The position numbers and the translations under genes are program-made. A stretch of DNA of 64,000 nucleotides from Octopus vulgaris (Eukaryota). The DNA lies in assembly GCA_951406725.2 (NCBI GenBank), contig OX597826.1, positions 70,308,001-70,372,000 of the forward strand. The letters are read 5' to 3'. The stretch's first letter is position 1. Every line of letters begins with the position of its first letter. Below, piece by piece: positions 7,820 to 62,655 of the stretch. Under the pieces are notes generated by a model, which was not told where the DNA came from, did not search any database, and saw nothing but the letters and a program-made list of their open reading frames with translations.

Positions 7820-8142
7820 GTTAGTGCTGCATTTTTAATTGTTTGTTTGCGAATTGATCAATTTATTTATTGCTCGTTAAAATTTCTTTTTAGTGTGGTG
7901 GTTTTAGCAGAATCATTTAAGTGTTAAATTAAATGCATTTCAATATTGAGTTGTGCTCCTTTATGTGGTGGGTTCAAATCCTGGAGAGAGTTTATCTGCC
8001 ATCTTTCTTTGGCTGTACCTCTTGTGCATTGAGGTAAATATGTTTGGTAGCATTTTTCTCCCTAGATTTATGTCTCAGAATTTGACCCAACTGGACCAGA
8101 ATTTCAATTCATGGCAGCACAGAAGACTGACATTAAATTACG

Positions 8143-8193
<51 letters not shown>

Positions 8194-11100: not shown

Positions 11101-11450
11101 AACCAATGGTTTCTGACTTATTTTTAGCAAATAAAATAAAATAATTTGCTAGCAAAATATTTTATTTTTTTGCTAAAATGTTTTTATGTTTCATTCCCTT
11201 CGAGAATTTATCCCTAATTAGTGGTTTGGACTGTAGCTGTTCCTTCTAGCGTAAGGGATTCCTATGATGGAAACCTCTTAATGTGTTTAAACGTACACTG
11301 TATTTTATATGAATAAGATATAGCCTATTGACTAATTTTTCTATACGCTAGGCCACTGGTAGTAAAAATTTCTAAAATCTTTATTACCCTATTATGAATT
11401 ATATATATACCTATATAAAAATACACACACACATATATATATATATATAT

Positions 11451-11481
<31 letters not shown>

Positions 11482-11492
11482 TATATATTTAT

Positions 11493-11551
<59 letters not shown>

Positions 11552-11625
11552 TATATTCAAACATATAAGGGACGGCCATAATAGGACATCCAACTCACTA
11601 GAAAGAGCAGCCAAACTCCAAACCA

Positions 11626-11675
<50 letters not shown>

Positions 11676-11881
11676 TATATGTATAATTTTGAATTGATTG
11701 GGAATTATAATTTCGCCTTGTCAGCTTCTACAAACAGTCAAGCCAATAAGGCAAAACTTGAATTGCCAGTCAAGTCAAAATTATCGATAAGACTCTACTA
11801 CAAAGAGTATAGAGTCCTGCTATCAATAAACGTTTTGTTATCATTAAATACCACCAAATACTACATATACACACACACACG

Positions 11882-11917
<36 letters not shown>

Positions 11918-12405
11918 AAGATAGATAGATTAGATAGATAGATAAGTGTAAAATATGTATGTATATCGAATATCATTATATATATATATCTTATATATCC
12001 TGTATGTGTATAGAGATGTATGAAAAGGTGTGTGTGTTTGTGTGTCCCACTTACACAGGGCCACACTCACTACCTGTCAGAAGCAGTAACTCAACTCCAA
12101 ACGAGGTCAACACTGACTTTATCAATCGTCGAAATTTGCATATATCACCTCAATGACCTCTCCCAGTGACAATAACTCAATCACCTCAATCTGTTACACT
12201 CAATGAATTTGGCTTACTCCGCCTACCTCTTGCAGTTTTTTTTTTATGTATTTTTTTTATGATTGTTGCTGTTGTTGTTCTGGACATTCTTAGTTGTTCA
12301 CCTCTTATGAATAGGTGGATTTGCAGTGCTGTTTCCATGGTAAATTAACATTCATTTCCAATTGTATAGGATTTCATATATATGTACTCATGTATGTACG
12401 TATGT

Positions 12406-12457
<52 letters not shown>

Positions 12458-12483
12458 CTGTGTGTGTGTGCATATATATGTAC

Positions 12484-12514
<31 letters not shown>

Positions 12515-13007
12515 GTGGAGGTGCAATGGCCCAGTGGGTAGGGCAGTGGACTCGTGGTCGGAGGATCACAGTTTCGATTCCCAGACCGGGCGTTGTGTAA
12601 GTTTATTGAGCGAAAACACCTAAAGCTCAACGAGCTCCAGTACGGGGTGGCGGCGACTCCTGTTGTACTCTTTCGCACCAACTTTCTCTCACTCTCTCTT
12701 CCTGCTTCTTGAGTAACGCTGCGATGGACTGGCGTCCCGTCCAGCTGGGGGGAACACATACGCCACAGAAACTGGGAGACTGGGCACATGAGCCTGGCTA
12801 GGCTTGAAAAGGGCACATAAATAATAATAATAATATATATATATATATAGGTGCAGGCATGGCTGTGTGGTAAGAAGTTAGCTTCTCAACCACAAGGTTC
12901 TGAGTTCAGTCCCACTGTGTAGCACCTTGAGCAGGTGTCATCTGCTATAGCCTCAAGTCAACCTAAACCTTGTGAGTGGATTTGGTACAGAAACTGAAAG
13001 ATGCTTG

Positions 13008-13047
<40 letters not shown>

Positions 13048-14579
13048 TCATCATCATCATCATTGTTTAATGTCCGCTTTCCATGCTAGCATGGGTTGGT
13101 CGATTTGACTGACTGGTGAACCAGGTGGCTGCACCAGGCTCCAATCTTGATCTGGCAGAGTTTGTACAGCTGGATGCCCTTCCTAATGCCAACCACTCCG
13201 AGAGTGTAGTGGGTGCTTTTACCCGTCACAAGGGCCAGTCAAGCAGTACTGGTGACAGCCACAAAAAAATTGTGTTTTTTAATTTTTACATGTCACCTGC
13301 ACACCATCACAAGTGCCAGTAAGGCGACACTGGTAACGATCACACTGAAATGGTGCTTTTTACGTGCCACCAGCGCAAATGCAGGTTAGCAGCTCTGGCA
13401 ATGATCATGCTTAGATGGTGCTCTTAGCACTCCACTAGCACGGATGCCAGTCATCGAATTTGATTTTGATTTCAATTTCATTTGCCTCAACAGGTTTTCG
13501 CAAGCAGTGTCCAATGAAGGGAAGGTAGGCATATGTGGGCTGGTTACACCCCTGGCATAGGCCACCATGTTATGGTCTCACTTGAGCTTGCCGAGTCTTC
13601 TCAAGCACAGCATATTTCCAAAAGTCTCAGTCACTGGTCATATATATATGAATGTGTGTGTGTGTGTGTGTGCATGCATATTATTATATATATATATATA
13701 CTCTTACTCTTTTACTTGTTTCAGTCATTTGACTGCAGCCATGCTGGAGCACCGCCTTTAATCGAACAACTCAACCCCGGGACTTATTCTTTTGTAAGCC
13801 CAGTACTTATTCTATCGGTCTCTTTTGCCGAACCGCTAAGTAACGGGGACATAAACACACCAGCATCGGTTGTCAAGCAATGCTAGGGGGACAAACACAG
13901 ACACACAAACACACACACGCATATATATATACATATATACGACGGGCTTCTTTCAGTTTCTGTCTACCAAATCCACTCACAAGGCTTTGGTCGGCCCGAG
14001 GCTATAGTAGAAGACAGTTGCCCAAGATGCCACGCAGTGGGACTGAACCCGGAACCGTGTGGTTGGTAAACAAGCTACTTACCACACAGCCACTCTTAGT
14101 GGGACTGAACCCGGAACCATGTGGTTGGTAAACAAGCTACTTACCACACAGCCACTCCTGCACCTATATATATATATTTTATATATATATGATGACGTGT
14201 GGCTTAGTGGTTAGGGCAATAGGCTCAGGATCGTAAGTCAAGACAATCACAATCACATCAACAAAATCTTAAAGCTATGAGATAATTCATAACTAATTCA
14301 AAACGATGCGAAGAAATAATCATTACATTCGACAGAAGGAACCAAAAGCTAAAGAGTTAAACTGGCAGAAACTCACTTCCACCCAACCACCCAATGTTTC
14401 CATGCCTTTTTCTTTTCAGCATCCAGTGAGGCTAAGTGCACTACTAGCATTATTTTTATGTGCATCTCTTACTGCACACTGACATTTGTCTTTGGGATAC
14501 ACAGCCACTTTAGACTATATAATTCAATAATTGGCAGTTCCGTTGATGGTGCAATTGACAAACTTATAATATGCGAATT

Positions 14580-14612
<33 letters not shown>

Positions 14613-14778
14613 CATATATATTTGCATACAAGAATTTGTGTATGTTAGTGTGTGTGTATACACATATATATTTGAATATATATATATATGGGTATATAGA
14701 TAGATAGATACACACATACATACATAGATACATAGCTAGATAGATAGACATACAGACAGAGATAGATAGATAGATACA

Positions 14779-14812
<34 letters not shown>

Positions 14813-15497
14813 CATAGATAGTTAACACAGACAGACAGACAGAGAGACATAGACAAACATAAATAAGCAGACAGACAGACAGGTAAAAAGATAGATAGAT
14901 AGATATGTAGATAGATAGATAGATAGATAGATAGTTAGACAGGCCGACAGACAGACAGATAGATAGATAGATGGGTGTATACACATGTGTAATATGTGTA
15001 TTCATATATGTGTATGTATGTGTGTGTGTGTATATATATACACACACACATGCACACACACATACATATACATTCTATATTTTATGGATCTGAGTCATTG
15101 GACTGCAGCCAGCTGGTGATCCACCTTTTGGAGTACAGTATGATCAGTTGCATCAATTCTCATCTTTATTCCTCTGACTTAACATAAAATGGATCTGGGC
15201 AGGACATAGCAAAATACCACAAGGCAGTGAGTGGGCGTGTGCACGCATGTGTGAGTGCATTACCATTTCTGTAATATATCTGCTGTTAAAAAACACATCG
15301 TGTTTAGGACACGGACACACTCACCACACACACATACTCATAACATTTTTAGATGGAAGTGTGTATGTCTGTATGTGCATGTACATGTTTGTGTGTATAT
15401 ATGTGTATGTGTGTGTGTATGTCTGTATATGTATATATATCTATATATACATGTATATTGTGCATATATATGTGTGTGTATATATATATATGTATAT

Positions 15498-15528
<31 letters not shown>

Positions 15529-15811
15529 ATATATATATATATTATGTGTGTTGTATATATATATATATATGTGTGTATATATATATATATGTGTTTATAT
15601 ATATATATGTATTTATATATATATATATATTATCAAAATGACTCTTAAGTGATTCTGTATTAGGTTTTTTTTCTGTTTTTTTATTGCCATATATTTTTCA
15701 TGCCAACCATATTTTTTCTTTATGCTATTACATCCTAAATGGCAAAGACATTTCTATCTTTCTAAGCATTAACCTAATACATTAACTTTTATCTTTCCTG
15801 TTGTTATTTTA

Positions 15812-15862
<51 letters not shown>

Positions 15863-16912
15863 TTACACACACACACACATGTACACACACGTACACACAT
15901 GTGTGAATGCATATATGGTATTGAAAAAATCTTTTAAACTGTATCATATGAAGTTGCCTTACATTTTCATGCTTTTAAATTTTGCTAATAAAGCAATTTA
16001 CAGCATGTTCTAGTTAAGCAGAGCCCCCATTATTCAATCTTGTCTTATCTTTCAGGTCAAATCTTCACTGCAAGCCGCAAACTGAACCGCGAATCGAAAG
16101 AGGAGCATATACTGACGGTGAGAATTGAACTAGGATACTCCCGGTTTCTTTTGTGTTGTTACAGATGTCGCTTTTGTGTTTTTTGTACGTTTGTGTCATT
16201 GTTTAGCCTCTCTCAGTCCTGATCCTACACCCATGAAGATGTTTCTTGGCCACAAGTATCCCAAAAATTTTTCAGGCCAAAGTGTCTGCTTGAAGAACAT
16301 CAATGATTATGAATTGGCTGTTATTTCTAACAGTTCATCTGACCACATAGGGGCTTTGTTGTCGGCTCAAAGTATACATACATACATACGTACAGAGGTT
16401 TATCATTTAAATATATATGAGCATGTCTAGATAATGCAACTATATGCATGAGAATATATAGATAAAGCAAAACATATATATATATATATATATATATATT
16501 GTGGAAGTGCAATGGCCCAGTGGTTAGGGCAGCGGACTCGCAGTTGTAGGATCGGGGTTTTGATTCCCAGACCGGGTGTTGTGAATGTTTATTGAACGAA
16601 AACACCCAAAGTTCCACGAGGCTCTGGCAGGGGGTGGTGGTGATCCCTGCTGTACTCTTTCGCCGCAACTTTCTCTCACTCTTTCTTCTGTTGGCCTGCT
16701 CGCTTAGCCAGCGGGGTGGCGTCATTTGAAGGCTAAAACAATGCGAAGCGCATTGTGACTAGCGATGTGTAGCAACATCTGATAGCCTGGTCGATCACGG
16801 TGATATATATATTATCCATGCAACAACACATGCTTTTCTCCAAACTATTTGCATGGAAGGCTGACGTGGAACAATGATCATCATCATCATGTTTGTGAGA
16901 GAGAGAGAGAGA

Positions 16913-31767: not shown

Positions 31768-34700
31768 TATGTGTCCGTATGTGAGTATATACACATTCAC
31801 ACATATATATATATAAATATATGTGTGTGTGAGTATATATATGTATATATACAAAATTTAAAGGACTGACCACTAAAAGTGGACGGTCAACATGCTAGAT
31901 ATAGACGTCAAATCGCTATTTTCCACAAAGAATATGTTCTCAAATAAAAAAACTCAGCACAAAACCAAAGCATTAAAAATAAGCAAGACGAATGAAAATA
32001 TACGAAATAAAAATGATTACCCATGTACAGATCAGTTTCGATTATTGATATCCGCAAGGATAAACTGTAATCTCGTCAGCATGGTCTGTCATATAGAAAT
32101 ACAATTTGCAGGACTAGATGCAAAAACGTTTGACCGGAGTCTCGCATGCATGGAGTCCAACCGATTATATTTTTGTGTATCTTTCAAATGCCTTCACTTT
32201 GGCGCACTGAGATCGGAAAAAACCACCCTGCAGCTAATAAATAGCAGCAGTCAATTTACCGGTTTGAGAACATATTTATTTAATTTAAAATTCAATAAGG
32301 GTAGAAATTGATATTAATCAATTAAAACCAGTGGCCCAGCATATTAAAAAAAATCCGAAGATTAAAATATTTTTTACATACAAAATCTAAAGGACTGACC
32401 ACTAAAAGTGGACGGTCAACATGCTAGATATAGACGTCAAAACTCTTCCTGATATATTTTCACTTCTTAACCACACATATTCTACTCCCTTTCACAGACA
32501 TGGAAGTTCTAGGCCCGTGTAAGTATTGAAACCGCAACACCTTCTTCTGTCTAGCATGTCGTGTAACCTCGTAACCTCTTCTTTCCATATAGCAGTGTCT
32601 CAGTCGGTTGCCGTCTGTTTTGTTTTTTTGCTTTGTTTTGTTCTTGTTTCTTTTGTGGGTTTTTTTATAGTTGTTGTTGTCGTCGTCATCGTTGTTGTTT
32701 TGTTTATTTATATTTTTATTTTGTAACATTTAGCTTGATTTTATTTTGCTTGGGAATGAAATTATGGTAATTGCCTTTAACATTAGTATATGTGTATGTA
32801 TGTATGTATGTATGGATACATAGGATATATGCATACATGTATGTATGTATATAAATATATGTATATATATAAATATATGTATATAAATATATGTATGTAT
32901 ATAAATATCTCTACGTATGTATTATATATGTGTGTTTATATATATGCATGTATATAAATAAATGTATGTATATAAATATGTATGTGTATGTAGTGTATAT
33001 ACATGTGTGTGTGTATATATATGTGTGTGTGTATATTTACGCACATACGCTCATGTACATGCACACATGCCCAGTCAACTTTATATTATTTTATTATTTA
33101 TTTTTTTAATATATATCTATGTTACCTCTGTATGTTTGATGAATGTGGCATTACATCATATTTGTATCCAAATATTTGCTAAAACAAACCCACCCCACTT
33201 TATTCAAACCTCTATAGCCACCACCTTCTTTTGTTCAAACTTCTGTAGCTACCACCCTATTTACTTCCATCCTGTGTAGTTACTACCCTATGTTATCCAA
33301 ACCTTTGAAGCTACCACCCTATTTTGTCCGAGTCCCTGTCCCTGCACTCAACAGAAGGAAAAACCAGCATTGCCGGTAAAGAATTTCTTCAAATGCAGTC
33401 ACTGTATGCATGACTGCTGCTTCTGTGTGGGCTTCTACAGCTACAGCCATTGCTGCACCACGATCAGTAGCTGAAACAATTTCATCAGGCACATCCATCG
33501 GTCTCTTCAGAGACCGATGGATGCCTACTACCAAACTATGGATCTTTATCTTTTGACCTACAGATATAACTTTATAAACATAAACATTTTTCAAAAACGC
33601 TAAGAGTAAAAGGTGTTTTATATGACACATTCTACAAGTATACGACGTTTGAAAGTGTTTAGTTACAAAAATTATTTTTTAAATCTGTCGGTCAAAAGGT
33701 AAAAGATCCCCAAACTACTGTATTCAGATCCCTGTTGCTACCACTCTATATGACAAAATAGTAATCTTAGTCTATTTGTAGTATCTTATTACGTATTGTC
33801 TCAAGTGAAATGCTAATACACAAATCCAACTTTACATACATTTTTCACGTCCACTAAATATTTCCTGTACTCCCAGTGCATCAAGCAACTTGCCCTGTGT
33901 ACTCATAATAGTCCAGGCATGTTTCTGACAAGCATCAACCAATAAGCCTTCAATATATTTCCTATTTTAAAAGCAATAATTATATCAACATAACTGTTAT
34001 AGAAAGGCATAATTTCCTTTGTTTGTTTTATATTAGAATAATGTAAAAGAACTATATTATATTGTAGTTGTTCTCCTTTGTATTCAGTCCCAGGTCAGCT
34101 CTGATCATGCAGAGGTGTTACAATCGTAACCGATTGGTACTTTTCTTCAGATACATCGTCATCATCATTGTTTAATGCCCACTTTCCATGCTGGCATGGG
34201 TTGGACGGTTTGACTGAGGACTGGTGAGCCAGCTGGCCACACTAGGCTCTGATCTGATCTGGCAGAGTTTCTACAGCTGGATGCCTTTCCTAACGCCATA
34301 TACGATATACCTAAAATCACATAGCCTGATGTATCTACTTTTTCTCTCCTCAGACACTAGTGTAGTATCTGTTTATAGCAAGACATTCAAACTGAATACA
34401 CGTTTTGTGTATTATAACATAATAGCATGAAACTGTGAAAGAGGATCAATATAGTCACATGCAACATATTATATGAGATCCTGGCATTTGTGTTTGTTTT
34501 TTTTTGCATGGCATGTAAATATCATGTAGCTTCGTTTAATGTAGTGTGCTGTGTAATAAGATAATTTGGCTTCATGTGTTTCATTGTAATAACTGCTGAA
34601 TGTAACCAAGCTCCATCATGCCTACATGTTGATTTTGAAATATACTCTGAGTTGACTTTGTCTTTCAGTACCTCTTGGCTCAATAAAATAGATTCTAGGC

Positions 34701-50000: not shown

Positions 50001-53000
50001 GTGGCAGCTGATGCAGATAGTGAACCAAACGCTATGATTACCTACATTATCAACAGTGGGGACATAGCTGACCAGTTTGACATAGAGCAGACCTTTGGAT
50101 ACCTGAGCATCAAATCTGCATTGGACAGAGAGAAAGTAAGTCTTTAGCGATCTCTCTTTTACTCTCATTTACTCTCTTTTACTTGTTTCAGTCATTTGAC
50201 TGCAGCCATGCTGGAGCACCACCTTTTGTTGAGCAAATTGACCCCGGGACTTATTCTTTGTAAGCCTAGTACTTATTCTAGCGGTCTCTTTTTGCCGAAC
50301 CGCTAAGTTACGGGAATGTAAACACACCAACATCGGTTGTCAAACGATGTTGTGGGGAACAAACACAGACACACATACACACATACATATCATTACTGAG
50401 TCCCTATAATGCACATCCCTTTCTCCCAGTCCCACAACGAAAACTTTATCGTAGTCTCCTCTCTCACTCTCACATTCTCTTTATTTCAGATTTCCAGCTA
50501 CAACCTCGAAGTCCTTGCTGTGGACAGTGGCTATCCTCAGTTGACCGGTACAACAACACTCTCTATTGAAATACAAGACATTAATGATTGTCCACCACGT
50601 TTTAGCCAGCCTGCATATTCTGTAGCTGTTCAGGTAAGAGGAGTCCTTGCCTTTATAAATTGTGCTCTATTGTTTGTGTGAGCAGTTTACATGACTCTAA
50701 GGAATTAAAAGGCTTATATATATTTATATATATATAAAGTAAACACAAATGCTATTTAAAATTTATAAAAGCTGCTTCAGTAGAATATTATTTATTCAAT
50801 GCAGTCATAATAGAGTACATCAGAATATATAATCCACTATCATCAGACACAATTTCTAGCCGTTTGTGGGGTCCTACAAGTTGATGTACTTTGATTTTTA
50901 TGAATCCTTATAACAAAATTATACACATTACATATATATACATATATATAGTTCTAGCTCTAAGGAATTAAAAGGTTTATATATATTTATATATATAAAA
51001 TAAACACAAATGCTATTTAAAATTTATAAAGGCTGTTTCAGTAAAATATTATTTATTCAATGCAGTTATAATAGAGTACATCAGAATATAAAATCCACTA
51101 TCATCAGACACAATTTCTAGCATTTGTGGGGCCCTACAAGTTGATCTACTTTAATTTTTATGAAGCCTTATAACAAAATTATACACATACATATATATAT
51201 ATATATATACATATATATAGTTCTGCACATAGGTTTACTTTCACTGTGCAAGTAGTGTATATATGTGGGATGGTAGCTAAACGTATATGAAAGTGAACTG
51301 GTCATTTTGTTGTCTTCTTCTTCACCATACCACGCACTCTTCAAATATACATTCTTTCTCTCGTCACACTACTTCACGGCATGTTCTCACTGCCACGCTA
51401 CCGTTCACGCTGCCACATGACCGAGTAATATGTTAAGACTACCACACCGCAGCACTTTATACAACATATCATCACTGCTACACTGCATTTTACACTGCCA
51501 CATCTTCACACAGTACTACCCACTCTGGTACTCTGTACTGCCACAAAACACGTCCACACTGTAAGACATGTCCACTCTCCCTCTCCTACACTACACTTCC
51601 GTGCAACATCACACATGAACACATGCTACATCACCAAACATCTATACTTAACCCCTTGACGCCGGTATTGTAGGATAGGTTTGAGAGGTCAGATCTGGCC
51701 CCTTTTAACATAAAACAGGTTGGCTATTTTGGATGGATATGGCCAGTTTAAATGCTAAAGGCTATCCAACTTTTTCTACTACACCCTCTCCTCACACATG
51801 TCCTAACAACACCACAGTACACACTATACAAGCCAATGAGGGAACTTCTATACCAGGGGTTCTCGACAGGGATCCATATGGCTACTGAGGGTCCCTATAA
51901 GATTTTGCAGGGGTCCACACAGCAGAATAGTAAATTGGAGATCCACAATAGAATTTTAAAGGACCCTGAAAAAATTTCGTTATAGATGAGCCTCACATTG
52001 GGCTCCACAGAGACAATGTGGTCAATGCTGGTGTCGACAAACAACCCCTGCAATAACAACAACAAACCGCATAATACAGGAGTTCTCAATTACTTTCCAG
52101 TGATTCTGTTTATTACTCCAAGAAGCACGAAAATGTGAGCCTTCCAGACCAAGATTTGATCCCTATAATTACAAGTTACATATATACTCTTTTACTCTTT
52201 TACTTGTTTCAGTCATTTGACTGCGGCCATGCTGGAGCACCGCCTTTAATCGAGCAACTCAACCCCGGGACTTATTCTTTGTAAGCCCAGTACTTATTCT
52301 ATCGGTCTCTTTTGCCGAACCGCTAAGTGATGGGGACATAAACACACCAGCATTGGTTGTCAAGCAATGCTAGGGGGACAAACACAGACACACAAACACA
52401 CACACACACATATATATATACATATATACGACGGGCTTCTTTCAGTTTCCGTCTACCAAATCCACTCACAAGGCTCTGGTCGGCCTGAGGCTATAGTAGA
52501 AGACACTTTCCCAAGGTGCCACGCAGTGGGACTGAACCTGGAACCATGTGGTTGGCAAAGCAAGCTACTTACCACACAGCCACTCCTGCGCCTATATCTT
52601 CGTCTGGAACTGACATGTTACCATATAACTGTCTGTTTATCACTCAGTTCTCACTGGACCACTGCCTCTCCTCTCTTTCTCTTTCTTTCTTTCTTTGAGA
52701 AAACGCTCTTTGATATTGCAAGCAGTGACCCTCCCTTTCCACAGAATTAAAAGATCCTATTTCATTGGTAGTCTGTCTCATGATCTGAGGTTTGGGAAAA
52801 TCTTAGTGGAATACGAGGACTATGTAGCTATTTGTGGGTGGAGGGGCATCCTTATTACATCATTGAATGTGTGTGCGTATAAATGTAAACTTCATATGTA
52901 TATATATATATATGTATGTATTTATATATATGTACATATATATATATGATCAAAATATATATGATCAAAATAAGCAACAAGGATATCCAAGGTAGTGTAG

Positions 53001-55118
53001 TACAATCGTTTCATGCTACTTCATTTAATTAAACAATGTAAGTATTACTAACATTGTTTAATTAAATGAAGTAGCATGAAACGATTGTACTATGCTACTT
53101 TGGATATCCTTGTTGCGTATTTTGATTATAATCACCACATTTGATTTATATGGATAATACCATACCAAATTTAACTTAAGTACCATATTCATCTGAATCT
53201 AAATTTTGCTGAACTTATATATGTATGTATATATGTATGTATGCAAATGTATGTTTATATCTACAGTTTTATTCATGAGAACCAATGTAAATATCTACAT
53301 CTGCGTAAATACACTCACACACATCTACAACTTTCCTCTCAAGTACATCGAATGCAAAAATGATGGCTATAATAAGGTCCACAGTGTATATATTATATAT
53401 CTGTTCAAATATACATAGATGTCCATAGCTGTCAAACATGTGTTTATATCGTGTCCATTGCTATCAAATATATGTATATTTTGTCCAGAGCTGTCAAGTG
53501 TGTGTATGTGTCCATTGCTGTCAGATGTGTATATATATATTGCTCATTGCCATCATATGTGTGTATATATTGACCATTGCTATTAAATGTGTGTACTTTG
53601 TCCATTGCCATTTAAGATGTATGTATATATATTTGTCGAATAAAATGTTTGTCATATATCTCTTATGTGGATTGGTCAGTTCTGAGGTCTAAAGTCCAGC
53701 TTCTTTCTCATGCCTGTCTGTGTTTGGCAAAAACCCTTTCATTGATGCATTTACCGAAATCTAAGCTTATCATTGTATATAAGGACACAGGAAAAATGTG
53801 TCAAAGCCATCAGGAGGCGTCAATGTTTCCTAGGGCTAAACAGCGTTAGTGTACCCCCCTACTGTCACGTTCGTGTTAGATTGACAGTATACAGCCATTC
53901 TATCGCCCCACCACCGTACATGTCTCTACGAGAGATTTAGAAATTTAGTATTTCTAAGCTTATCATTGAATCAGTGAAAACCTAACAAGGTTTTTATTCA
54001 AGAGAACTTAACTTTCCAGTTATAATTATTATCATTAGGCGGCGAGCTGGCAGAATCATTAGCACACTGGGCGAAATGCATAGCAGTATTTTATCTGTCG
54101 CTACATTCTGAGTTCAAATTCAGCCGAGGTCGACTCTGCCTTTTATCCTTTCGGGGTCGATAAATTAAATACCAGTTACACACTGGGGTTGGTGTAATCA
54201 ACTAAACCCCTCTCCTTGTGCCTTTAGTAAAAAGGATTATTATTGTTGTTGTTTGGAGGTGGTGAGTTAGCAGAACCGTAACAGTATCAGAACAAATGCT
54301 TTGTAGCATCTATTTTGGCCCTTTAAATTTTGAGTTAAAATCCCAACTTTGCCTTGCACCCTTACAGCGTCGATCTCTTAAATATTTCTTTGTCTTGTGC
54401 CTAACCTTTTAGCATTCAGATTACTTTGTCAACTGGAATGCTTATCTATTCACCATGCTTCAAATCATTCAAGCATTTTCTCACAGCTTCAAGATTTTGA
54501 TGACGTGCTTGTTTATAATTAGAATGACATTGTTGGGTAAATGTGAGATGCTGGATCTGGATGATTTGAACATAAAACAAGTCAGATATTTTGGTTGGAC
54601 ATGACTTGTTTAAATGCTAAACAGTTAAATTAAAAGCAATTGTTGTTATCAAGGGTAATAATTGACAGAACTGTTAGTGGGTTGGACAAAAATACTATGT
54701 GGTATTTCTTCTGACTCTTTACATTCTGGGTTCAAATCCTGACTAAATTAACTTTGCCTTTTATCCCTTCAAGATCAATAAAATAGGTACCAGGCGTGCA
54801 TTGAGATCAATGTAATCAACATACCCCATGCCCTAAAACTGCTGGCATTGTGCTAAAATTTGAAACCATTATTAATAATATTACTGTTATTAAGGCAGCG
54901 AGATGGCAGAATCATTAGCACGCCAGGCATAATACCTAGTGGCATTTCGTCCGTCTTTACATTCTGAGTTCAAATTCTGCTGAGGTCGACTTTGCCTATC
55001 ATCCTTTCAGGGTCGATAAATTAAGTACCAGTTGCGCATTGGGGTTGATATAGTCGACTCATCTCTTCCCCCTAAATTGCTTCCGTTGTGGAAAAATTTG
55101 AAACCATCATCATTATTA

Positions 55119-55156
<38 letters not shown>

Positions 55157-55724
55157 TATCATCATCATCATCATCATTATTACAGTCTTTTTTTCTCTGT
55201 TATTACACCAAGCACAGCTCTCCGGGTGCCTTGGGTATGAGTAATGTTTTGTTTTTGTTTGTTTGTGGGTTCTTTTCGTTTTCTATTGTACTGAGCGTTT
55301 TTCTATATATATGTATATATATATATATTCATTTGTGCCGTGTCTGGTTTTCTGTGACTTACGTATGATGTCTTATTCTGTGGTACTCTACATAATATGT
55401 ATGTATATCACTTACTTGTAATATTTTCTGTATATTACATATTTGTGTGTGTCTTACCCCCTCGGGTACCCTACACAGTATTTGTGTAGGGCATAGTTGT
55501 ACAACTTTCTCTGTGTGTGTGTGTGGGTAATTTTTTTTGGTGTTTTAGTCCTACATTCGTCTCCTTTGTCACTGTCATCCTCCAGATATGTAATCTATAA
55601 GGGGTTTATTTCTATTTTCTGTCCCCAGATTCTAGGTAGCAAATATATGCAAGAATTTTTTTAAATATTTTTGATAGATTTCTCCATTCAATTCTAATTG
55701 TTGTTGATCTTGTTGTTGTTATTA

Positions 55725-55755
<31 letters not shown>

Positions 55756-55924
55756 AAATTGATGAAGATTGACGTAACTCGTTCAGAAGGTAAATACACA
55801 ATTAAAAGAGTGTGAACCAGATGTCGTCAGTCATATTATCAACATACTGTTCATTTTAATAAGCAAAGTCAATCTGTTTTTCATTATATATCACATCACG
55901 CTCTTCTAATTGTGATTATTATTA

Positions 55925-55967
<43 letters not shown>

Positions 55968-55978
55968 CATTATCATCA

Positions 55979-56018
<40 letters not shown>

Positions 56019-56077
56019 CATCATCATTATCATTATTATTATCATTATCATTATTATTATTGTTATTATTATTATTA

Positions 56078-56114
<37 letters not shown>

Positions 56115-56307
56115 CATTAATATTATTATCATTAGTATTATTATTATCATTATTATCATTATTATTATCATTATTATTATTATTATCATTAATATCATTA
56201 TTATTATTATTATCATTAATATCATTATCATTAATATTATTATTATCATTATTATCATTATTATTATCATTATTATTATTATTATTACCATTATCATTAT
56301 TATTATT

Positions 56308-56381
<74 letters not shown>

Positions 56382-56388
56382 CATTATT

Positions 56389-56429
<41 letters not shown>

Positions 56430-57133
56430 CATCATTATTATTATTATTTTCATTATTCGCTAAGTGATCATGTATCTTAAGGTATTATGCATATATATAT
56501 ATATATATATCATATCCCTCATAGATTTATAAATATAAAGTATATATAAAGTAGAAAACTATTTGAATTTTGGTGAATGTGAGGGTGTCAATATGCATGT
56601 ATGTATGTATGTACGTATGTATATATATATATTTATATGTACACATATATAAATATTGTGTATGCATATATTTGATATTTTCTATTTCATATTCAGAAAA
56701 ACTCTTTGGTCGTAAGTGTGAAGCTCCAATTTTGCATGCTTCCTCCTCCTCCTCTTGTGTCATCTTCAGTTTGGACATGTTTAACCTTGACCATGACCTC
56801 AACCATGACCTTTCGTTGCTCACCCTCTATCTATTCTCTATCTCTCTCTCCACCCCCACCACCACATTTACACTTCTAGATTTTGCAGTTTGATTTTTTT
56901 TTTTGTCATTTTTTGCCTATTCAGTACATTTGATTTCACCTTCAACACTAAACTGTTTTATTTGTGTCGAAATGCATTGTGCATCGGTGTTTTGCATTCC
57001 TGCACTATATTGTTGCACCTCTGTGCAAATTCATATATATATATATGTGTGTGTGTTTGTGTTTATTATGTATGTGTATGTGTGTTTGTGTGTGCGCACA
57101 TATTTACTCACATGCATATGCATATATGCATAC

Positions 57134-57192
<59 letters not shown>

Positions 57193-57689
57193 TACATAGA
57201 TATATATTATATCCATATATATGTATATATACACATTTACCATCCACTACAAATCTATATATATATACATGTGTGAAGAAACAATGTATGCATGGGTGTA
57301 TATATATACTTACCTATATATATATATATACATACATATACACACAGGCACACATACATTTGTATCATGTAAAATGACCGGCCAAGTACACATGTACTTG
57401 TATACATGCAATATAAACTACTATATATTATACATGTGTGTATATATGTATAATATATATATATATACACACACACAGAGACACACACAAATGCATATGT
57501 AACATTGATGGTTATTCTGATTGTCCAGCATATTCATCTTCAATGTAACCAATGTAAGTAAGCCTTGTTTGGTTTAATTAAAGACCATATTGTGGGTGGA
57601 CATGTCCAAAAGAAATTTTCCTCTTGAGAATATATTTTTTATAATTGCTGTTGTTATTGTGTTTATTGTTGTTATTATTGTTTTTTGTT

Positions 57690-57730
<41 letters not shown>

Positions 57731-57778
57731 CATTATTGTAAATTTACTGTGTGGCTCTCTTAATTTTTACCTTGTTAT

Positions 57779-57843
<65 letters not shown>

Positions 57844-58222
57844 TATATATATATATACACATATATATATTTGTTGTTTAACATTTTTAAAACTATTTTA
57901 TGTGTAACTTTGAAACATCTGCTATTTCCCTTTAATTTTGCATTTGTTTAATCTCCAGTTTGTTGTTTCATATCTTAATTTTTATACCTTTTCATGACTA
58001 GTTTAGTTATATTGTGATTCAGTTCTTTCTATAACATTTTTACACCACATTTGCTGTGCTTTATAAACAGTTCAAACATCTCATGTTTTCAGTTTCTTGT
58101 ATTTTTCTGTTATTTTTTTTCCCCCTTTTTTTATCTTTTCAGCCTCTGTCGTCCTATTTGTGGCTCTGTTATGTTAATGTTATAGATAGTTAGACCTTTA
58201 TCACACTGCTGTTACATCCCTG

Positions 58223-58256
<34 letters not shown>

Positions 58257-61200
58257 TCTTCTTGTAGTTGTGGGTCTCATCGTTCTTCCATATTTGTGTC
58301 ACACACGTGTTACATGCCAACAACAATTTTCAATTTTCTTTTCCTTATTATGCAGATGGCATATCTCTGTTACCGTATTTATTGCTTTGGTTATCTTGAA
58401 AGCCTTTCCACATGCCCCTGTGTCACATACATGTGTCACATCCCTGCTACATTACTCCTTGTTACACCTCCCCACTACAGTCTGTTTTGGAGAAATTGTT
58501 GTCACACTTCTGTCACACTGATGCTAGAGTTTCTGTTGTTCTGGTTATTGTTACAGCCCTAATTACTATTCTGTTATTACACCAGTTCTTATTGCAGTGT
58601 TGGTACATATGTTACCATCTTCTTACATAACTTTCAGAATTCTTCCACATGAAGGCGGTGAGCTGGCAGAAACGTTAGCACATCGAGCGAAATGCTTAGC
58701 GGTATTTCGTCTGCTGTTATGTTCTGAGTTCAAATTCCACCAAGGTCGACTTTGCCGTTCATTCGTTTGAGGTTGATAAATTAAGTACCTATTTCTTTAG
58801 TACCCACAAGGGGCTAAACACAGAGGGGACAAACAAGGACAGACAAACAGATTAAGTCGATTACATTGACCCCAGTGCGTAACTGGTGCTTAATTTATCG
58901 ACCCCAAAAGGATGAAAGGCAAAGTCTACCTTAGCGGAATTTGAACTCAGAACATATTGGCAGACGAAATAACGGCTACGCATTTCGCCCTGCATGCTGA
59001 CGTTTCTGCCAGCTCGCCACCAAATTAAGTACCAGTTATGCGCTGGAGTCGATGTAATCGACTTAATCCCTTTGTCTGTCCTTGTTTGTCCCCTCTGTAT
59101 TTAGCCCCTTGTGGGTAATAAAGAAATAAGTATTCTTCCACATGTGTCTTGACTCATGGCAGATTTTTACCTGTATGTCACAGGCCTGATACATGCTTTC
59201 CATTGTTCTTCCCAAAGTATCTCCATTCTTGACACATTTCTGTCGTACATGTCACGGCCTTGTTACATACATGAATATTTCATTTATCACAAAAATCTTT
59301 ATACTGGTTACTTCAAATAAATATTTACATCATGTAATAACCTATTTATGACGGCATGCCTATATTATTAATAGATAAATAATTAACACTTTTACTGCAG
59401 AAATCAACCAGCTCCACTCAAAATTTCATTACCCGTAACTGCAGATGGTAGTTTTACATACCAATTTGTCTTTTGTTGAGGAATTCATGTTTGGAATTAT
59501 TTCTTGTTGAAATATGCCAAGTCTAGTGTGGCAATTGTGGAGGCGCAATGGCCCAGTGGTTAGGGCAGCGGACTCGCGGTCGTAGGATCGCAGTTTCGAT
59601 TCCCAGACCGGGCGTTGTGAGTGTTTATTGAGCGAAAACACCTAAAGCTCCATGAGGTTCCGGCAGGGGACGGTGGTGATCTCTGCTGTACTCTTTCACC
59701 ACAACTTTCTCTCACTCTTACTTCCTGTTTCTGTTGTACCTGTATTTCAAAGGGCCGGCCTTGTCACTCTCTGTGTCACGCTGAAGATCCCCGAGAACTA
59801 CGTTAAGGGTACACGTGTCTGTGGAATGCTCAGCCACTTACACGTTAATTTCACGAGCAGGCTGTTCCGTTGATTCGGATCAACTGGAACCCTCGTCGTC
59901 GTAACCGACGGAGTGCTTCCATCCAGTGTGGCAATGAGATTTCCAGAAAATACCAATGCCATTTCTTGGTAGATGTTTAGCATCATTTTTAGAATAATCT
60001 TGGAATCTTATATCAACAGTGAAAGGCTTAAATATTGAATTTTATGTCATAACTTTTTTGGTTTTTTTTTTTTATTAATTAGTTTGTTGTATGATTAACA
60101 TCTATTCACTGATTTCTTAAACTATTTTTAATCGCTTTTCAGGAGGATCGTCCAACAGGTTTTGACATCTTAAAATTCGAACTCACCGATGATGATTTGC
60201 CACCAAATGGCGCCCCGTTCTCGTTTGACATTATTTCAGGTGTTGGTAAGGAGAGGTTTCGAGTGGACAATGAAGGCAAGCTGCTAACTGTCCGAGACCT
60301 CAACCAGAGCATTAAGGACCGCTATGAACTGACTATTAGAGCCTTTGACAGTGGAAGCCCTCCTTTGTACTCCGATGCAACTGTGACCATTGAGGTAACT
60401 GAGGAGAGTACAGTGCCTCCCAAGATATCCAACCTGAAAATCTCAATCAACTCCTATCAAGACAAATTCCCTGGTGGGATCATTGGCAAAGTTTCCGCTG
60501 AAGACCCAGACATTCATGATTCCCTTAAGTATAGTATTGTCTCTTCGAATCTTCATCTATTTGATATTCATGAGAACGATGGCCGTATTATTGCGAAGCC
60601 AGGTCTAGATGCCGGCCGGTATGTCATTGATGTGAAAGTCTCAGATGGTAGGTATGATTCTTATGGCCAAGCTAACGTCGACGTCAGCGTTACCACTGAT
60701 GAAATGGTCAAGAATGCTGTAACCATTCGTCTTGGTAATATCCAAGCTGATGATTTTTTGAGGCAGCAGTCTAGAAACTTCATCAAGGTCTTGAAGAACG
60801 AATTATCTGTTCGGGCTAGAGACATTGAAATAATCAGCCTGCAACCCGCTGACATCAGTACAGGTGCACAGAGCAGGCGTAAGAGGTCTACATCCGAAGA
60901 TCTTGATGTTTTGTTTGCTGTGAGGATGTCTCATAATAGTTTCATCCGTGTTAACACACTACGAAGGAAAGTTCAGAATGCTACCCCTAAAATACAGTCA
61001 GCGCTCAACCTGAAAGTCATGAAAGTATTTAGTGATGTCTGTGAGAAGGACACATGTGATACGGGATCGTGCATTGGCTTTGTGGACTTTGACAAGGAAA
61101 ATCCTATTGTTACTGAGATTGGCGAACAAAGTTTTGTCTCACTGAAGTACCGGTACACTTATGAGTGTAAATGTCTTGATAGTAAGTTCTCATTTTACCA

Positions 61201-62655
61201 TTTCCTTCTTTGTTCAAACCTCATTATCTTTACTACAGTTCTTTCTTCACTAAATTAGCGAATCCTTGTGTGACATAGACATGTTTTGTATTATATGCAA
61301 ATGAATATACGTTTCTCTTTGTGATTTAATTAAGATCTTCTTAATGGAGTTCAAGCTGGTCCCTAACGAACTGATGGGATCTTTTGAATTAAGGCAATTC
61401 CTGAAGTTTGTAAATGTGTGGTTGAGTTTGTGTGTGCGTATGTGTAAAGGGTATGCACTTGCAGTTATAGTCTGTGTGTTTGTGTCTCTATAGTACTTCG
61501 ATGTCTGCGTACAAGAGTGTGCATGTGTGTGTGTGAGTGTGTGTCTGAAAGAGAGAGAGAGAGCAAGAGAGTGTATAGATTGATAGACAATCAGAGAAAG
61601 CATGTATAATCAACATTTCCTGTCTATTTTTGCAGACAAATGTATATGGGACCCAGACCCCTGTATTGGTCACCAATGTCCACACTACAAAGTGTGTAAA
61701 GCTTCTGATGTGTCTGGGCCACAGTGTGCCTGCCCAGAGGGCAAGACTGGGCTGTACTGTGACAAGGACTTACCCCCAGACTGTGCTCAACATGGATGTT
61801 ATCATGGTACGTGCTATCTTATTCTGGTCGCTCTTCTACAATCACACCACAAAGTCCCCACCACCACCACCCACCCACCCACATACACATCATCATCATC
61901 ACCATCATCATACATCATTATTTCAACATTCCATTTTTTCATGTTTCCATGGATCAAACGAAATTTACCAAAGCAGACTTTCTACAGCCAAATGCTCACC
62001 TTGTCCCCATGTGTGTGTGTGTGTGTATGTACATAGGAGGCGCAATGGCCCAGTGGTTAGGGCAGCGGACTCGCGGTCATAGGATCGCGGTTTCGATTCC
62101 CAGACCGGGCGTTGTGAGTGTTTATTGAGCGAAAACACCTAAAAGCTCCACGAGGCTCCGGCAGGGGATGGTGGTGATCCCTGCTGTACTCTTTCACCAC
62201 AACTTTCTCTCACTCTTACTTCCTGTTTCTGTTGTACCTGTATTTCAAGGGGCCAGCCTTGTCACTCATTGTGTCACGCTGAATATCCCCCGAGAACTAC
62301 GTTAAGGGTGCACGTGTCTGTGGAGTGCTCAGCCACTTACACATTAATTTCACGAGCAGGCTGTTCCGTTGATTCGGTTCAACCGGAATCCTCGTCGTCA
62401 TAACCGACGGAGTGCTTCCATCCATAGTAGTGTATGTACACAAGTTTCTAATGTGCTACAGTTGTTCACGATTGTTGTTTATTTTTTGCAGATAATAAAC
62501 CTTTAACATTTGCTGGCCGTAGCTTTGCTCGATGGACGTTGGTGGACAAACACGGCTTTGAAAACAGATTAAGTGTTTCATTGAGGATAAAGACTCACCA
62601 GAAAAATGCCAACCTCATGTTTGCTAGTGGTTCTGTGGATTATAGTATTCTTGAG
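7505..62655 (+). CDS. FAT1: Fat-like giant cadherin (FAT1/2/3 co-orthologue, Drosophila kugelei/fat2 type), internal multi-exon portion; both ends outside the window
   Basis: 24 exons with AG/GT boundaries join in one open frame (8432 nt). Repeated cadherin motifs (xE, LDRE/LDYE, DxNDNxP, AxDxD) are followed by [13 protein letters not shown], a Cys-rich EGF-like region and a LamG start ending DYSILE, as I recall in vertebrate FAT1/3 rather than FAT4. The symbol denotes the subfamily, not 1:1 orthology. Confidence 0.93.
9201..9248 (+). pseudogene. Degraded LINE reverse-transcriptase fragment
   Basis: [16 protein letters not shown] resembles the CR1/Jockey-type LDISKAFDKVWH motif; flanks are disrupted. 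Confidence 0.4.
9891..10300 (-). mobile_element. SINE family 1, full-length antisense copy
   Basis: reverse complement of 4252..4650. Confidence 0.85.
10952..11400. mobile_element. Foldback element between (TA)n tracts with inverted arms of about 135 bp
   Basis: 10952..11085 is the reverse complement of 11175..11310 with scattered mismatches. Confidence 0.8.
12514..12830 (+). mobile_element. tRNA-derived SINE family 2, tail type A (also 34716..35015, 47078..47402)
   Basis: head with TGGCCCAGTGG A box and GTTTCGATTCC B box; shared body and tail. Confidence 0.85.
13700..14163 (-). mobile_element. SINE family 1 copy with tandemly duplicated head
   Basis: 14036..14095 repeated at 14098..14157. 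Confidence 0.85.
16056..16117 (+). CDS. Fat-like exon B (62 nt): [21 protein letters not shown]
   Basis: ctttcag|GT ... ACG|gtgaga; phase 1-0 fits neighbours. Confidence 0.92.
16501..16804 (+). mobile_element. SINE family 2, tail type B
   Basis: same head and body; different sequence after ACTTTCTCTCACTCTT. Confidence 0.8.
18347..18649 (+). CDS. Fat-like exon C (303 nt): VTVKDNG...NFEFI
   Basis: gaccag|GTC ... ATT|gtgagt; DENDHAP motif. Confidence 0.95.
18929..19135 (-). mobile_element. Tc1/mariner transposon 3' remnant
   Basis: minus-strand [26 protein letters not shown] resembles the mariner transposase C-terminus (GIxxLxxRWxKCxxxxGDYVEK); TIR-like end near 18929..18957. Confidence 0.7.
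20512..20725 (+). CDS. Fat-like exon D (214 nt): VKATDHG...WYSIE
   Basis: ttccag|GTA ... GAGG|gtaagt. Confidence 0.95.
21073..21212 (+). CDS. Fat-like exon E (140 nt): DGNEDHTF...QDFAW
   Basis: ttacag|AT ... TGG|gtaagt. Confidence 0.95.
21750..22190. repeat. Degenerate minisatellite of about 20-bp period with core CCATTCCTCCAA
   Basis: core recurs many times. Confidence 0.85.
22377..22584 (+). CDS. Fat-like exon F (208 nt): [13 protein letters not shown]...IDSET
   Basis: tcgcag|CTT ... ACTG|gttagt. Confidence 0.95.
23533..23808 (+). CDS. Fat-like exon G (276 nt): [12 protein letters not shown]...YSILS
   Basis: ttgtag|GT ... TCAG|gtagcc. Confidence 0.95.
24969..26464 (+). CDS. Fat-like exon H (1496 nt), about 5 cadherin repeats
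   Basis: acgcag|GG ... CAG|gtaaat; lies in ORF 24947..26476. Confidence 0.97.
26733..27123 (-). mobile_element. SINE family 1 copy
   Basis: matches family 1 over its length. Confidence 0.85.
27777..27954 (+). CDS. Fat-like exon I (178 nt): ISAVDKD...EAADN
   Basis: tcacag|ATT ... AATG|gtaagt. Confidence 0.95.
28084..28375 (+). mobile_element. SINE family 2 variant, tail type C (also 46533..46845, 49268..49568)
   Basis: related head TGGCCTAGTGG...GTTCGAATCTC; tail ends GCTCGAGAAGGAACAA. Confidence 0.8.
29788..30009 (+). CDS. Fat-like exon J (222 nt): GEIQQ...EFTVDFNT
   Basis: ttccag|GT ... ACAG|gtaaga. Confidence 0.95.
30489..30524 (-). ncRNA. Minimal hammerhead ribozyme motif (Penelope-type)
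   Basis: TTTT-CTGATGA-C-GGAC tagt GTCC-GAAA-TG-TC-AAAA. Confidence 0.65.
31849..32441 (-). mobile_element. Retrozyme/Penelope-type non-autonomous element: 529-bp monomer plus 64-bp terminal direct repeat, containing the HHR
   Basis: 31849..31912 repeats at 32378..32441 with 1 mismatch; abuts a (TA)n tract. Confidence 0.75.
32021..32084 (-). ncRNA. Type I hammerhead ribozyme with intact core
   Basis: minus strand CCATG-CTGACGA-GATTA(...TATCC ttgc GGATA...)TAATC-GAAA-C tgatct G-TA^CATGG; all three stems pair; GUA cleavage triplet. Confidence 0.88.
32498..32518 (+). CDS. Candidate alternative microexon mA (21 nt, phase 1-1); gives [15 protein letters not shown]
   Basis: branch-like CTTAAC 32466..32471, polypyrimidine tract, cacag|ACATGGAAGTTCTAGGCCCGT|gtaagt, GCATG at 32554. 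Confidence 0.8.
33355..33375 (+). CDS. Candidate alternative microexon mB (21 nt, phase 1-1); gives [15 protein letters not shown]
   Basis: tccctgtccctgcactcaacag|AAGGAAAAACCAGCATTGCCG|gtaaag; TGC just upstream of the acceptor; TGCATG at 33407. Confidence 0.62.
33539..33710. mobile_element. MITE of about 172 bp with TIRs of about 27 bp
   Basis: ggatctttatcttttgacctacagat ... atctgtcggtcaaaaggtaaaagatcc; caaacta duplicated at 33532..33538 and 33711..33717. Confidence 0.75.
35322..36138. repeat. (CA/TACA)n compound microsatellite, about 820 bp
   Basis: direct reading. Confidence 0.95.
36518..36730. repeat. 78-bp tandem repeat, about 2.7 copies, just upstream of exon K
   Basis: units start at 36518, 36596 and 36674. 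Confidence 0.85.
36798..36919 (+). CDS. Fat-like exon K (122 nt): [12 protein letters not shown]...SINIM
   Basis: ttgcag|GC ... ATG|gtatgg. Confidence 0.95.
37550..38150 (-). mobile_element. (GAT)n-tailed non-LTR retroelement family 4 (other copies 1241..1380, 1530..1790, 8250..8410, 13045..13640, 19375..19620, 34160..34295, 40985..41245, 46255..46465, 48730..48985)
   Basis: shared GGCGTTAGGAAGGGCATCCAGCTGTAGA...AACCCATGCTAGCATGGAAAGCGGAC 3' region, variably 5'-truncated. Confidence 0.8.
38274..39096 (+). CDS. Fat-like exon L (823 nt): DVNDCNP...IDADT
   Basis: cattag|GAT ... ACAG|gtaagt. Confidence 0.96.
39728..39764 (-). ncRNA. Minimal hammerhead-like motif with variant core (CTGTAGA)
   Basis: CTTT-CTGTAGA-A-GAAAT tca ATTTC-GAAA-CG-TA-AAAG. 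Confidence 0.55.
40075..40283 (+). CDS. Fat-like exon M (209 nt): [12 protein letters not shown]...TSIVQ
   Basis: aaacag|GA ... CAG|gtgaga. Confidence 0.95.
40686..40830 (+). CDS. Fat-like exon N (145 nt): VKALDPDEG...SIREK
   Basis: atccag|GTA ... AAAG|gtaagt. Confidence 0.95.
41486..42555 (+). CDS. Fat-like exon O (1070 nt): ANQVYQFFV...DPICSK
   Basis: ttccag|CA ... AAG|gtaata. Confidence 0.96.
43316..43475 (+). CDS. Fat-like exon P (160 nt): [10 protein letters not shown]...MGVHT
   Basis: acacag|ATG ... ACAG|gtaggt. Confidence 0.93.
44588..44821 (+). CDS. Fat-like exon Q (234 nt): [12 protein letters not shown]...TDQDA
   Basis: ttacag|GT ... GCTG|gtaagt. Confidence 0.95.
46045..46193 (+). 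CDS. Fat-like exon R (149 nt): GVSKEIKF...IAYDK
   Basis: ctgtag|GT ... AAG|gtaagt. Confidence 0.94.
46869..47481 (-). mobile_element. tRNA-headed SINE-like element carrying a hammerhead motif (46925..46970), interrupted by another SINE
   Basis: Pol III A and B boxes at 47407..47480, (AAT)n spacer, HHR, (AATGTAAAT)n tail; TGACATTT duplicated at 46861..46868 and 47482..47489. Confidence 0.72.
47593..47827 (+). CDS. Fat-like exon S (235 nt): GFPRMSST...IDKTT
   Basis: ttgcag|GGA ... ACAG|gtacgt. Confidence 0.95.
47854..48190. repeat. (ACT/ACC)n compound microsatellite
   Basis: direct reading. Confidence 0.9.
49783..50135 (+). CDS. Fat-like exon T (353 nt): [12 protein letters not shown]...LDREK
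   Basis: ttttag|GC ... AAA|gtaagt. Confidence 0.95.
50490..50633 (+). CDS. Fat-like exon U (144 nt): ISSYNLEV...SVAVQ
   Basis: tttcag|ATT ... CAG|gtaaga. Confidence 0.95.
50695..51224 (-). repeat. Tandem dimer of about 263 bp, each unit with a degenerate hammerhead-like motif
   Basis: units start 50695 and 50958; CTGATGA at 50840..50846 and 51101..51107 on the minus strand. Confidence 0.7.
52186..52592 (-). mobile_element. SINE family 1 copy (further copies or fragments at 1..82, 6900..7060, 12850..13010, 20885..21040, 50160..50390, 62693..63131)
   Basis: matches family 1. Confidence 0.85.
52960..53217. mobile_element. Foldback element between (TA)n tracts with inverted arms of about 80 bp; second, collapsed copy at 26563..26712
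   Basis: 52960..53039 pairs with 53051..53130; the unique tail matches 26563..26670 in reverse. Confidence 0.8.
54402..54628. mobile_element. MITE-like repeat with TTTAGCATT...AATGCTAAA termini and TTAA-like flanks (second copy about 19830..20070)
   Basis: short TIRs; fragments recur near 9570, 14240, 37460 and 51650. Confidence 0.55.
55915..56457. repeat. (ATT/ATC)n microsatellite, about 540 bp
   Basis: direct reading. Confidence 0.95.
56697..56711 (+). CDS. Candidate alternative microexon mD (15 nt, phase 0-0); gives VAVQ-KNSLV-EDRP
   Basis: ttttctatttcatattcag|AAAAACTCTTTGGTC|gtaagt; TGCATG at 56733. Confidence 0.68.
58651..59130. mobile_element. SINE family 3 copy with an inverted family 3 copy (58790..59021) nested inside it
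   Basis: 12-bp duplication AAATTAAGTACC at 58778..58789 and 59022..59033. Confidence 0.85.
59537..59924 (+). mobile_element. SINE family 2, tail type D (also 62035..62424)
   Basis: two near-identical copies of about 390 bp ending GGAGTGCTTCCATCCA. Confidence 0.85.
60143..61181 (+). CDS. Fat-like exon V (1039 nt): last cadherin repeats, linker with RRKR, start of Cys-rich region
   Basis: tttcag|GAG ... GATA|gtaagt; overlaps ORF 60197..61258. Confidence 0.96.
61636..61806 (+). CDS. Fat-like exon W (171 nt): EGF-like domain (DPCIGHQC...[12 protein letters not shown])
   Basis: ttgcag|AC ... CATG|gtacgt; EGF-type Cys spacing. Confidence 0.94.
62492..62655 (+). CDS. Fat-like exon X (164 nt): start of laminin-G domain (PLTFAGRSF...DYSILE)
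   Basis: ttgcag|AT ... GAG|gtaaat. Confidence 0.94.

Follow-up and report, generated by a model that had tools for sequence, protein, structure and literature searches.

A KNSLV-encoding microexon beside a non-canonical calcium linker in a Fat-like cadherin of Octopus vulgaris

The window analyzed here, a stretch of 64,000 nucleotides of Octopus vulgaris DNA, contains a cadherin gene in which a 9509-nt phase 0 intron (its length when the microexon is skipped) encloses 15 nucleotides that could be read in frame, and this raises the question of whether they constitute an exon and, if so, what five additional residues might do immediately ahead of a calcium-binding motif of cadherin repeat (EC) 33. 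An initial annotation of this DNA had described these nucleotides as a microexon encoding KNSLV and had pointed to its splice sites and to a TGCATG hexamer downstream; when the sequence was read again, the coordinates, the frame, the splice sites and the hexamer were all as described. The elements from which the question is approached are as follows.

50490 to 50633, forward strand: upstream constitutive exon (U), encoding the end of EC32, the EC32-33 linker DINDCPP and EC33 strand A as far as YSVAVQ.
50634 to 56696, forward strand: upstream intron, 6063 nt, phase 0, second in length among the 25 mapped introns (median 1223).
56667 to 56696, forward strand: T-rich tract and CAG acceptor of the microexon, 10.9 bits, inside the range of the gene's other acceptors.
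56697 to 56711, forward strand: microexon, 15 nt, phase 0, AAA AAC TCT TTG GTC (KNSLV), in EC33 just ahead of the xE motif.
56712 to 56717, forward strand: gtaagt donor of the microexon, consensus in its intronic part, weak as a whole site (2.5 bits).
56712 to 60142, forward strand: downstream intron, 3431 nt, phase 0.
60143 to 61181, forward strand: downstream constitutive exon (V), encoding the rest of EC33 from the xE Glu (60143 to 60145), EC34 and a membrane-adjacent module.

A full-length search identifies the protein as P0224, listed by NCBI as "protocadherin Fat 1 isoform X3 [Octopus vulgaris]", which reads YSVAVQ-KNSLV-EDRP, with KNSLV as residues 3473-3477; the exon is already in the NCBI annotation, and gene models such as isoform X3 are normally built on transcript alignments. 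The window encodes residues 1113-3935 of P0224 exactly, and all 25 exon junctions fall at unique GT-AG sites. The protein has 34 cadherin repeats together with LamG and EGF domains (Pfam), the matches obtained with exon V as query are Fat-like cadherins, and the named matches for residues 3575-4060 are Fat 1-like, fat-like, kugelei and Fat1/Fat3 proteins, with two that carry a UniRef Fat 4 label. By its repeat number, its LamG and EGF domains and these named matches, the gene is assigned to the Fat1/2/3-type (kugelei) cadherins.

Exon V also encodes the sequence RRKR (P0224 residues 3722-3725), which we take to be a furin-like basic site, in a length-variable loop of the membrane-adjacent module after EC34. 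The longest mapped intron is 7820-16055 (8236 nt, phase 1), at whose junction no recurrent insert is found among 63 protostome proteins. A long ATT-type microsatellite extends over approximately 55900-56450 and ends about 250 nt upstream of the microexon, and at least two dispersed repeats recur many times in the introns, with copies on both strands, such as those near 52330-52750, 59550-59900 and 62040-62430.

Exon U ends at 50633 in GTTCAG/gtaaga, exon V begins at 60143 (cag/GAGGAT), and the bases before the microexon are ttcatattcag. When its exonic GTC is taken into account, the microexon donor scores lower than any of the 23 training donors, which makes it the gene's weakest; its agreement with the consensus is confined to the intronic half. 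As a control for chance, splice-site matrices were derived from the other 23 donors and 23 acceptors of the gene, and both strands of the 64 kb were scanned for frame-keeping pseudo-exons of 3-30 nt scoring at least as high as the microexon. Three matches were obtained on the forward strand: the KNSLV exon, whose inclusion follows from the way the threshold was set, a 3-nt fragment at a true acceptor, and a 21-nt exon at 32498. The minus strand gave none of equal score, and with the thresholds raised to the 25th percentile neither strand retains any candidate, not even the KNSLV exon. Among 25 AG..GT candidates of up to 60 nt in the U-V intron, 53489-53503 is the only other stop-free, in-frame candidate of 30 nt or less, and it lies below the score thresholds. 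A chance pseudo-exon is ruled out by the lack of any equal on the minus strand together with the presence of KNSLV in the annotated protein, and we regard the exon as real with near certainty. Its description as a genuine in-frame microexon lying directly before the xE motif, close to the last cadherin repeats, holds, the repeat being number 33 of 34.

The distribution of inserts at this position was examined in an alignment of 94 orthologues, comprising 84 of the 103 matches of one search (7 unnamed sequences and 12 redundant vertebrate isoforms being left out) and 10 named matches of the full-length search. An insert occurs at the identical Q/E junction of EC33 in 14 of the 94, representing 12 mollusc and chelicerate species: it is present in 1 of 4 cephalopod, 9 of 12 bivalve (7 of 9 species), 2 of 13 gastropod and 2 of 12 chelicerate sequences. 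None is found in the 20 pancrustacean, 2 annelid, 1 chiton and 30 chordate and cnidarian representatives, but it should be noted that most rows are one isoform per cluster, so that absence of the insert is weak evidence. The doubt attached to the exon in the initial annotation, that it might prove unsupported and unconserved, is answered by an O. vulgaris isoform that includes it and by 11 other species with an insert at the same junction. A novelty specific to Octopus is ruled out by these inserts in other molluscs and in chelicerates. Two bivalve-like genomic open reading frames begin their homology at Q/E, which supports an intron position common to octopus and at least the bivalves; two insect-like open reading frames, on contigs of 35-49 kb, run through Q/E uninterrupted, which suggests that the intron was lost in those insect-like genomes.

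The EC33 inserts are of 5-10 residues and poorly similar, and the flanking Q and E are kept in 91 and 90 of the 94 orthologues, respectively. Divergent mollusc inserts include RPPPGL, RPREGN and MNFKK; a loose resemblance can be seen between KNSLV of Octopus, MNSLLS of Ruditapes and KINLLV of Biomphalaria, with the pattern [K/M/R]-x(0-1)-[N/D]-x-L. Selection appears to bear on the presence of a few extra residues at this site and not on their exact sequence, and, given the poor similarity, the inserts may have originated independently. In a further invertebrate-like set, in which a few rows aligned to another repeat, at least one 13-residue insert is present at the EC33 site among the matches listed (28 of 30 representatives, from 145 screened), and this may reflect read-through in a gene model.

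The initial annotation had treated the exon as a cassette, and this behavior is borne out in at least one mollusc, Argopecten, at the level of gene models: four isoforms differ only in the EC33 insert, which is present in three of the four, in an insert in EC21 and in one cytoplasmic insert. Among cephalopods, skipped forms are represented by Argonauta isoform X5 and two cephalopod-like assemblies, and the single Octopus protein that was compared includes KNSLV. It is very likely that the exon is alternative in Octopus also. Outside the window, P0224 has a 21-residue cytoplasmic segment before YHWD (residues ~4464-4484) that Argonauta X5 does not have and where the Argopecten isoforms vary; it is probably encoded by a third alternative exon. 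The splice isoforms of FAT1 that Braun reported in 2007 are said to be cytoplasmic.

In the cadherin topology the xE Glu of each repeat is turned toward the linker that joins this repeat to the following one, and the Glu next to the insert, kept in 90 of the 94 orthologues, faces the EC33-34 linker. Two further sites in exon V bear on the calcium binding capacity of this linker.

60299 to 60310, forward strand: LNQS, where EC33 would be expected to carry the LDRE calcium motif.
60401 to 60409, forward strand: EES, where the EC33-34 linker would otherwise have its DxNDN motif.

Canonical cadherin linkers are characterized, in the available text of PMC7547225, by the motifs XEX, DXD, D(R/Y)(D/E), XDX and DXNDN. 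In the octopus EC33-34 linker DRE is replaced by NQS and DxNDN by EESTV, and the commonest residues across the 94 orthologues restore neither motif. The three Asp ligands on the EC34 side (DxD and xDx, site 3) are each present in 94 of 94, and the ligands of the preceding EC32-33 linker are conserved in 92-94 of 94. A canonical three-calcium linker between EC33 and EC34 is ruled out by the loss of DRE and DxNDN, although xEx, DxD and xDx are present. The pattern suggests that site 1 has been lost and site 3 retained, and that site 2 could still be formed through the Glu and the conserved EES, so that EC33-34 is probably a partly calcium-free hinge in Fat1/2/3-type orthologues even when the insert is absent. 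Thus, the earlier proposal that the insert precedes a calcium-ligating Glu stands with respect to conservation of the residue but not with respect to the linker that it faces, which is not canonical; the Glu can contribute no more than a ligand to a degenerate site 2. If only site 3 were occupied, the Glu would bind no calcium and the insert could not act through it.

Linkers of PCDH15 with losses of this kind hold two ions (EC2-3) or one (EC5-6), and EC5-6 is flexible, according to the portion of PMC7547225 available; the non-canonical CADH5-6 linker of CELSR1 is described as a hinge in simulations in the accessible part of PMC12038025. The 51 PDB sequence matches include no Fat1/2/3 entry for the region, and the best of them, CELSR1 8vy2, leaves CADH1-8 unresolved, as stated in the same part of PMC12038025. 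Along the P0224 ectodomain, 9 of the 33 linkers are without DxN[D/E] (EC2-3, 6-7, 12-13, 15-16, 18-19, 20-21, 23-24, 25-26 and 33-34), and these nine provide a map of probable bends.

The 21-nt candidate from the chance scan proves to be a second exon of this kind.

32498 to 32518, forward strand: another microexon of this gene, 21 nt long and in phase 1, which adds the seven residues MEVLGPC in EC21.

Inserts at this position are found in 3 of 4 cephalopods, 7 of 12 bivalves, 5 of 12 gastropods, the 1 chiton, both of 2 annelids, 8 of 11 chelicerates and 10 of 20 pancrustaceans, and in none of 29 chordate and cnidarian representatives. They mostly carry a GPC motif, with its added cysteine, and the exon is alternative, both forms being present in the Argopecten models. 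By its distribution among the aligned proteins, the EC21 microexon is more deeply conserved than the KNSLV exon. From general cadherin topology its insert presumably faces the EC20-21 linker, which is also without DxND; the location of both microexons beside linkers of this type, which make up 9 of 33, has a probability of about 0.07 by chance and is suggestive only.

These observations are consistent with a mechanism in which KNSLV would extend the end of EC33 strand A by a short loop, immediately in front of the Glu that is directed toward the EC33-34 linker, a placement that we take from general cadherin topology. The linker would bind one or two calcium ions, not three, and would serve as a hinge connecting the long rod of cadherin repeats to the unit formed by EC34 and the membrane-adjacent module. 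The insert would bulge outward and leave EC33 folded, in the manner of PCDH15 exon 12a, and would shift the Glu or weaken the remaining calcium at site 2, so that the hinge is loosened or re-angled. Because EC33-34 appears to be degenerate already, the insert would act on an existing hinge by the membrane-adjacent module and not on a rigid linker. A regulated cassette that loosens or re-angles the EC33-34 hinge is, on this comparison of linkers and inserts, the most likely reading, and we hold it with modest confidence; whether the insert acts mainly through hinge geometry or calcium occupancy is, in our judgment, an even matter. Splicing of KNSLV may in this way tune how Fat bends or binds. 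Two other roles were rejected: the insert creates an N-glycosylation sequon in none of the 12 species, and it supplies no acidic ligands in Octopus, or in 6 of the 12 inserts.

Rather unlikely, but the strongest of the alternatives, is an effect in which the hinge is unchanged and the insert provides or masks a binding surface for partners in cis or trans, which could be another Fat, a receptor of the Lar type or the membrane-adjacent module of the protein itself. The loose pattern common to several inserts would be in keeping with such a surface, as would the general tendency of microexons to modulate protein-protein interactions, described in the available text of PMC4317164 and of bioRxiv 10.64898/2026.09.05.749416; however, the EC33 insert varies in sequence and length across molluscs, unlike the GPC of EC21, and no EC33 partner emerged from the literature search. 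The exon could also be real but nearly neutral, tolerated in a permissive loop and a long intron, with low or unregulated inclusion and possibly several origins. The poor sequence conservation, the absence of the insert from 3 of 4 cephalopod representatives and the weak donor would all fit this account, as would the recurrent gain of exons in the same genes that the accessible part of bioRxiv 10.64898/2026.09.05.749416 reports as common. We nevertheless consider it improbable, since 12 species from two phyla have inserts that preserve the frame at one and the same junction and, in a reading of the variable sites of 63 protostome proteins, only the EC33 and EC21 sites are all-or-none and scattered across clades, whereas the others follow lineage. 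A formerly alternative exon that is now always included in Octopus, leaving no switch in this species, would agree with the one Octopus protein compared but is highly improbable in view of the weakest donor in the gene, the forms without the exon in Argonauta isoform X5 and the two cephalopod-like assemblies, and the occurrence of both forms in Argopecten.

For the preferred reading, a regulated cassette at the EC33-34 hinge, two intronic elements are candidates for control of inclusion.

56733 to 56738, forward strand: TGCATG, 21 nt after the microexon, a candidate downstream Rbfox enhancer.
56663 to 56665, forward strand: TGC, 34 nt before the microexon and inside a 111-nt AG-free zone, a possible Srrm234/eMIC element.

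It is probable that inclusion differs between tissues (neural or muscle) under the control of an enhancer in the intron, Rbfox acting at the downstream UGCAUG being the leading candidate. There are 35 copies of TGCATG on the forward strand of the window, another of them 103 nt upstream; 2 of the 25 donors have one, and the chance of one lying within 100 nt of a donor is approximately 3-5%. A contribution of Rbfox to inclusion, for which a single motif speaks, is accordingly put forward tentatively, at somewhat below an even chance. The AG-free zone at the microexon acceptor is the second longest among 25 acceptors. A TGC within 50 nt is found at 6 of the 25 and is therefore not distinctive; the one at -34 is the only such element of the microexon acceptor, the score of which is ordinary. 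In order of length, the four introns flanking the microexons take places 2 to 5 among the 25.

A more far-reaching interpretation would make the two exons an ancient, regulated pair in protostome Fat-like cadherins, one in EC21 with GPC and a new cysteine and the other in EC33, located at two calcium-poor hinges and combined by neurons to set bend and reach: a splicing-based shape code maintained for more than 500 million years, which chordates lack and from which insects have lost the EC33 exon. We think it unlikely that this holds in its entirety.

Previously known are the exon itself, through the NCBI annotation, and the existence of microexons beside atypical cadherin linkers, through PCDH15. 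A literature search, with most subscription papers outside its reach, found neither ectodomain microexon described; a preprint on eMIC in the fly (bioRxiv 10.1101/2021.02.24.432780) contains no occurrence of "kug" or "cadherin", and the main text of a survey of splicing in 20 species (bioRxiv 10.64898/2026.09.05.749416) contains none of FAT1, kug or cadherin. The supplementary datasets of that survey, according to its available text, include O. bimaculoides and may list both exons. Relative to the literature found, the new observations are an optional insert at one junction across molluscs and chelicerates and a GPC-bearing EC21 microexon common to molluscs, annelids and arthropods. Few microexons are deeply conserved; only two neural microexons ancestral to bilaterians were found with confidence in the survey, as its available text states. 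Fat-like cadherins organize axon terminals and collective migration in flies, in the partly accessible accounts of their function, and the two exons offer a small and direct handle on how such proteins change shape or partners.

The octopus protein resembles the Fat1/2/3-type atypical cadherins, such as Drosophila kugelei/Fat2, in having 34 cadherin repeats, LamG and EGF domains, but differs from members of this group in its ectodomain inserts: none of 29 chordate and cnidarian representatives has that of EC21, and none of 30 has that of EC33. With the neural microexons controlled by SRRM3/4 and Srrm234-eMIC, as presented in the available text of bioRxiv 10.1101/2021.02.24.432780 and 10.1101/2024.09.17.613571, the KNSLV exon has in common its short length, a long AG exclusion zone and an upstream UGC; however, in octopus the UGC lies 34 nt from the exon, on the 5' side of the pyrimidine tract, the acceptor is of ordinary strength, and the fly eMIC exons have short introns (bioRxiv 10.1101/2021.02.24.432780). 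The likeness to RBFOX-enhanced micro-exons extends to a very short, frame-keeping exon, a weak splice site, introns that are long on both sides and a TGCATG downstream, features given for the human exons in the accessible text of PMC4317164, although these were defined in human and mouse by CLIP and RNA-seq and the octopus exon by one motif read in the DNA. In PCDH15, a vertebrate tip-link protocadherin, the insert encoded by exon 12a is in the BC loop at the top of EC4, whereas that of the octopus Fat-like cadherin precedes xE at the bottom of EC33; the effect of the former has been seen in a crystal structure, in which a 7-residue loop projects outward with the fold unaltered and may affect calcium affinity or flexibility at an atypical linker (PMC7547225 and bioRxiv 10.1101/695502, in their available parts), whereas the octopus insert is described at the level of sequence. 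Exon 12a is nonetheless the closest precedent, being a short, in-frame, alternative exon that adds a loop beside an under-occupied calcium linker.
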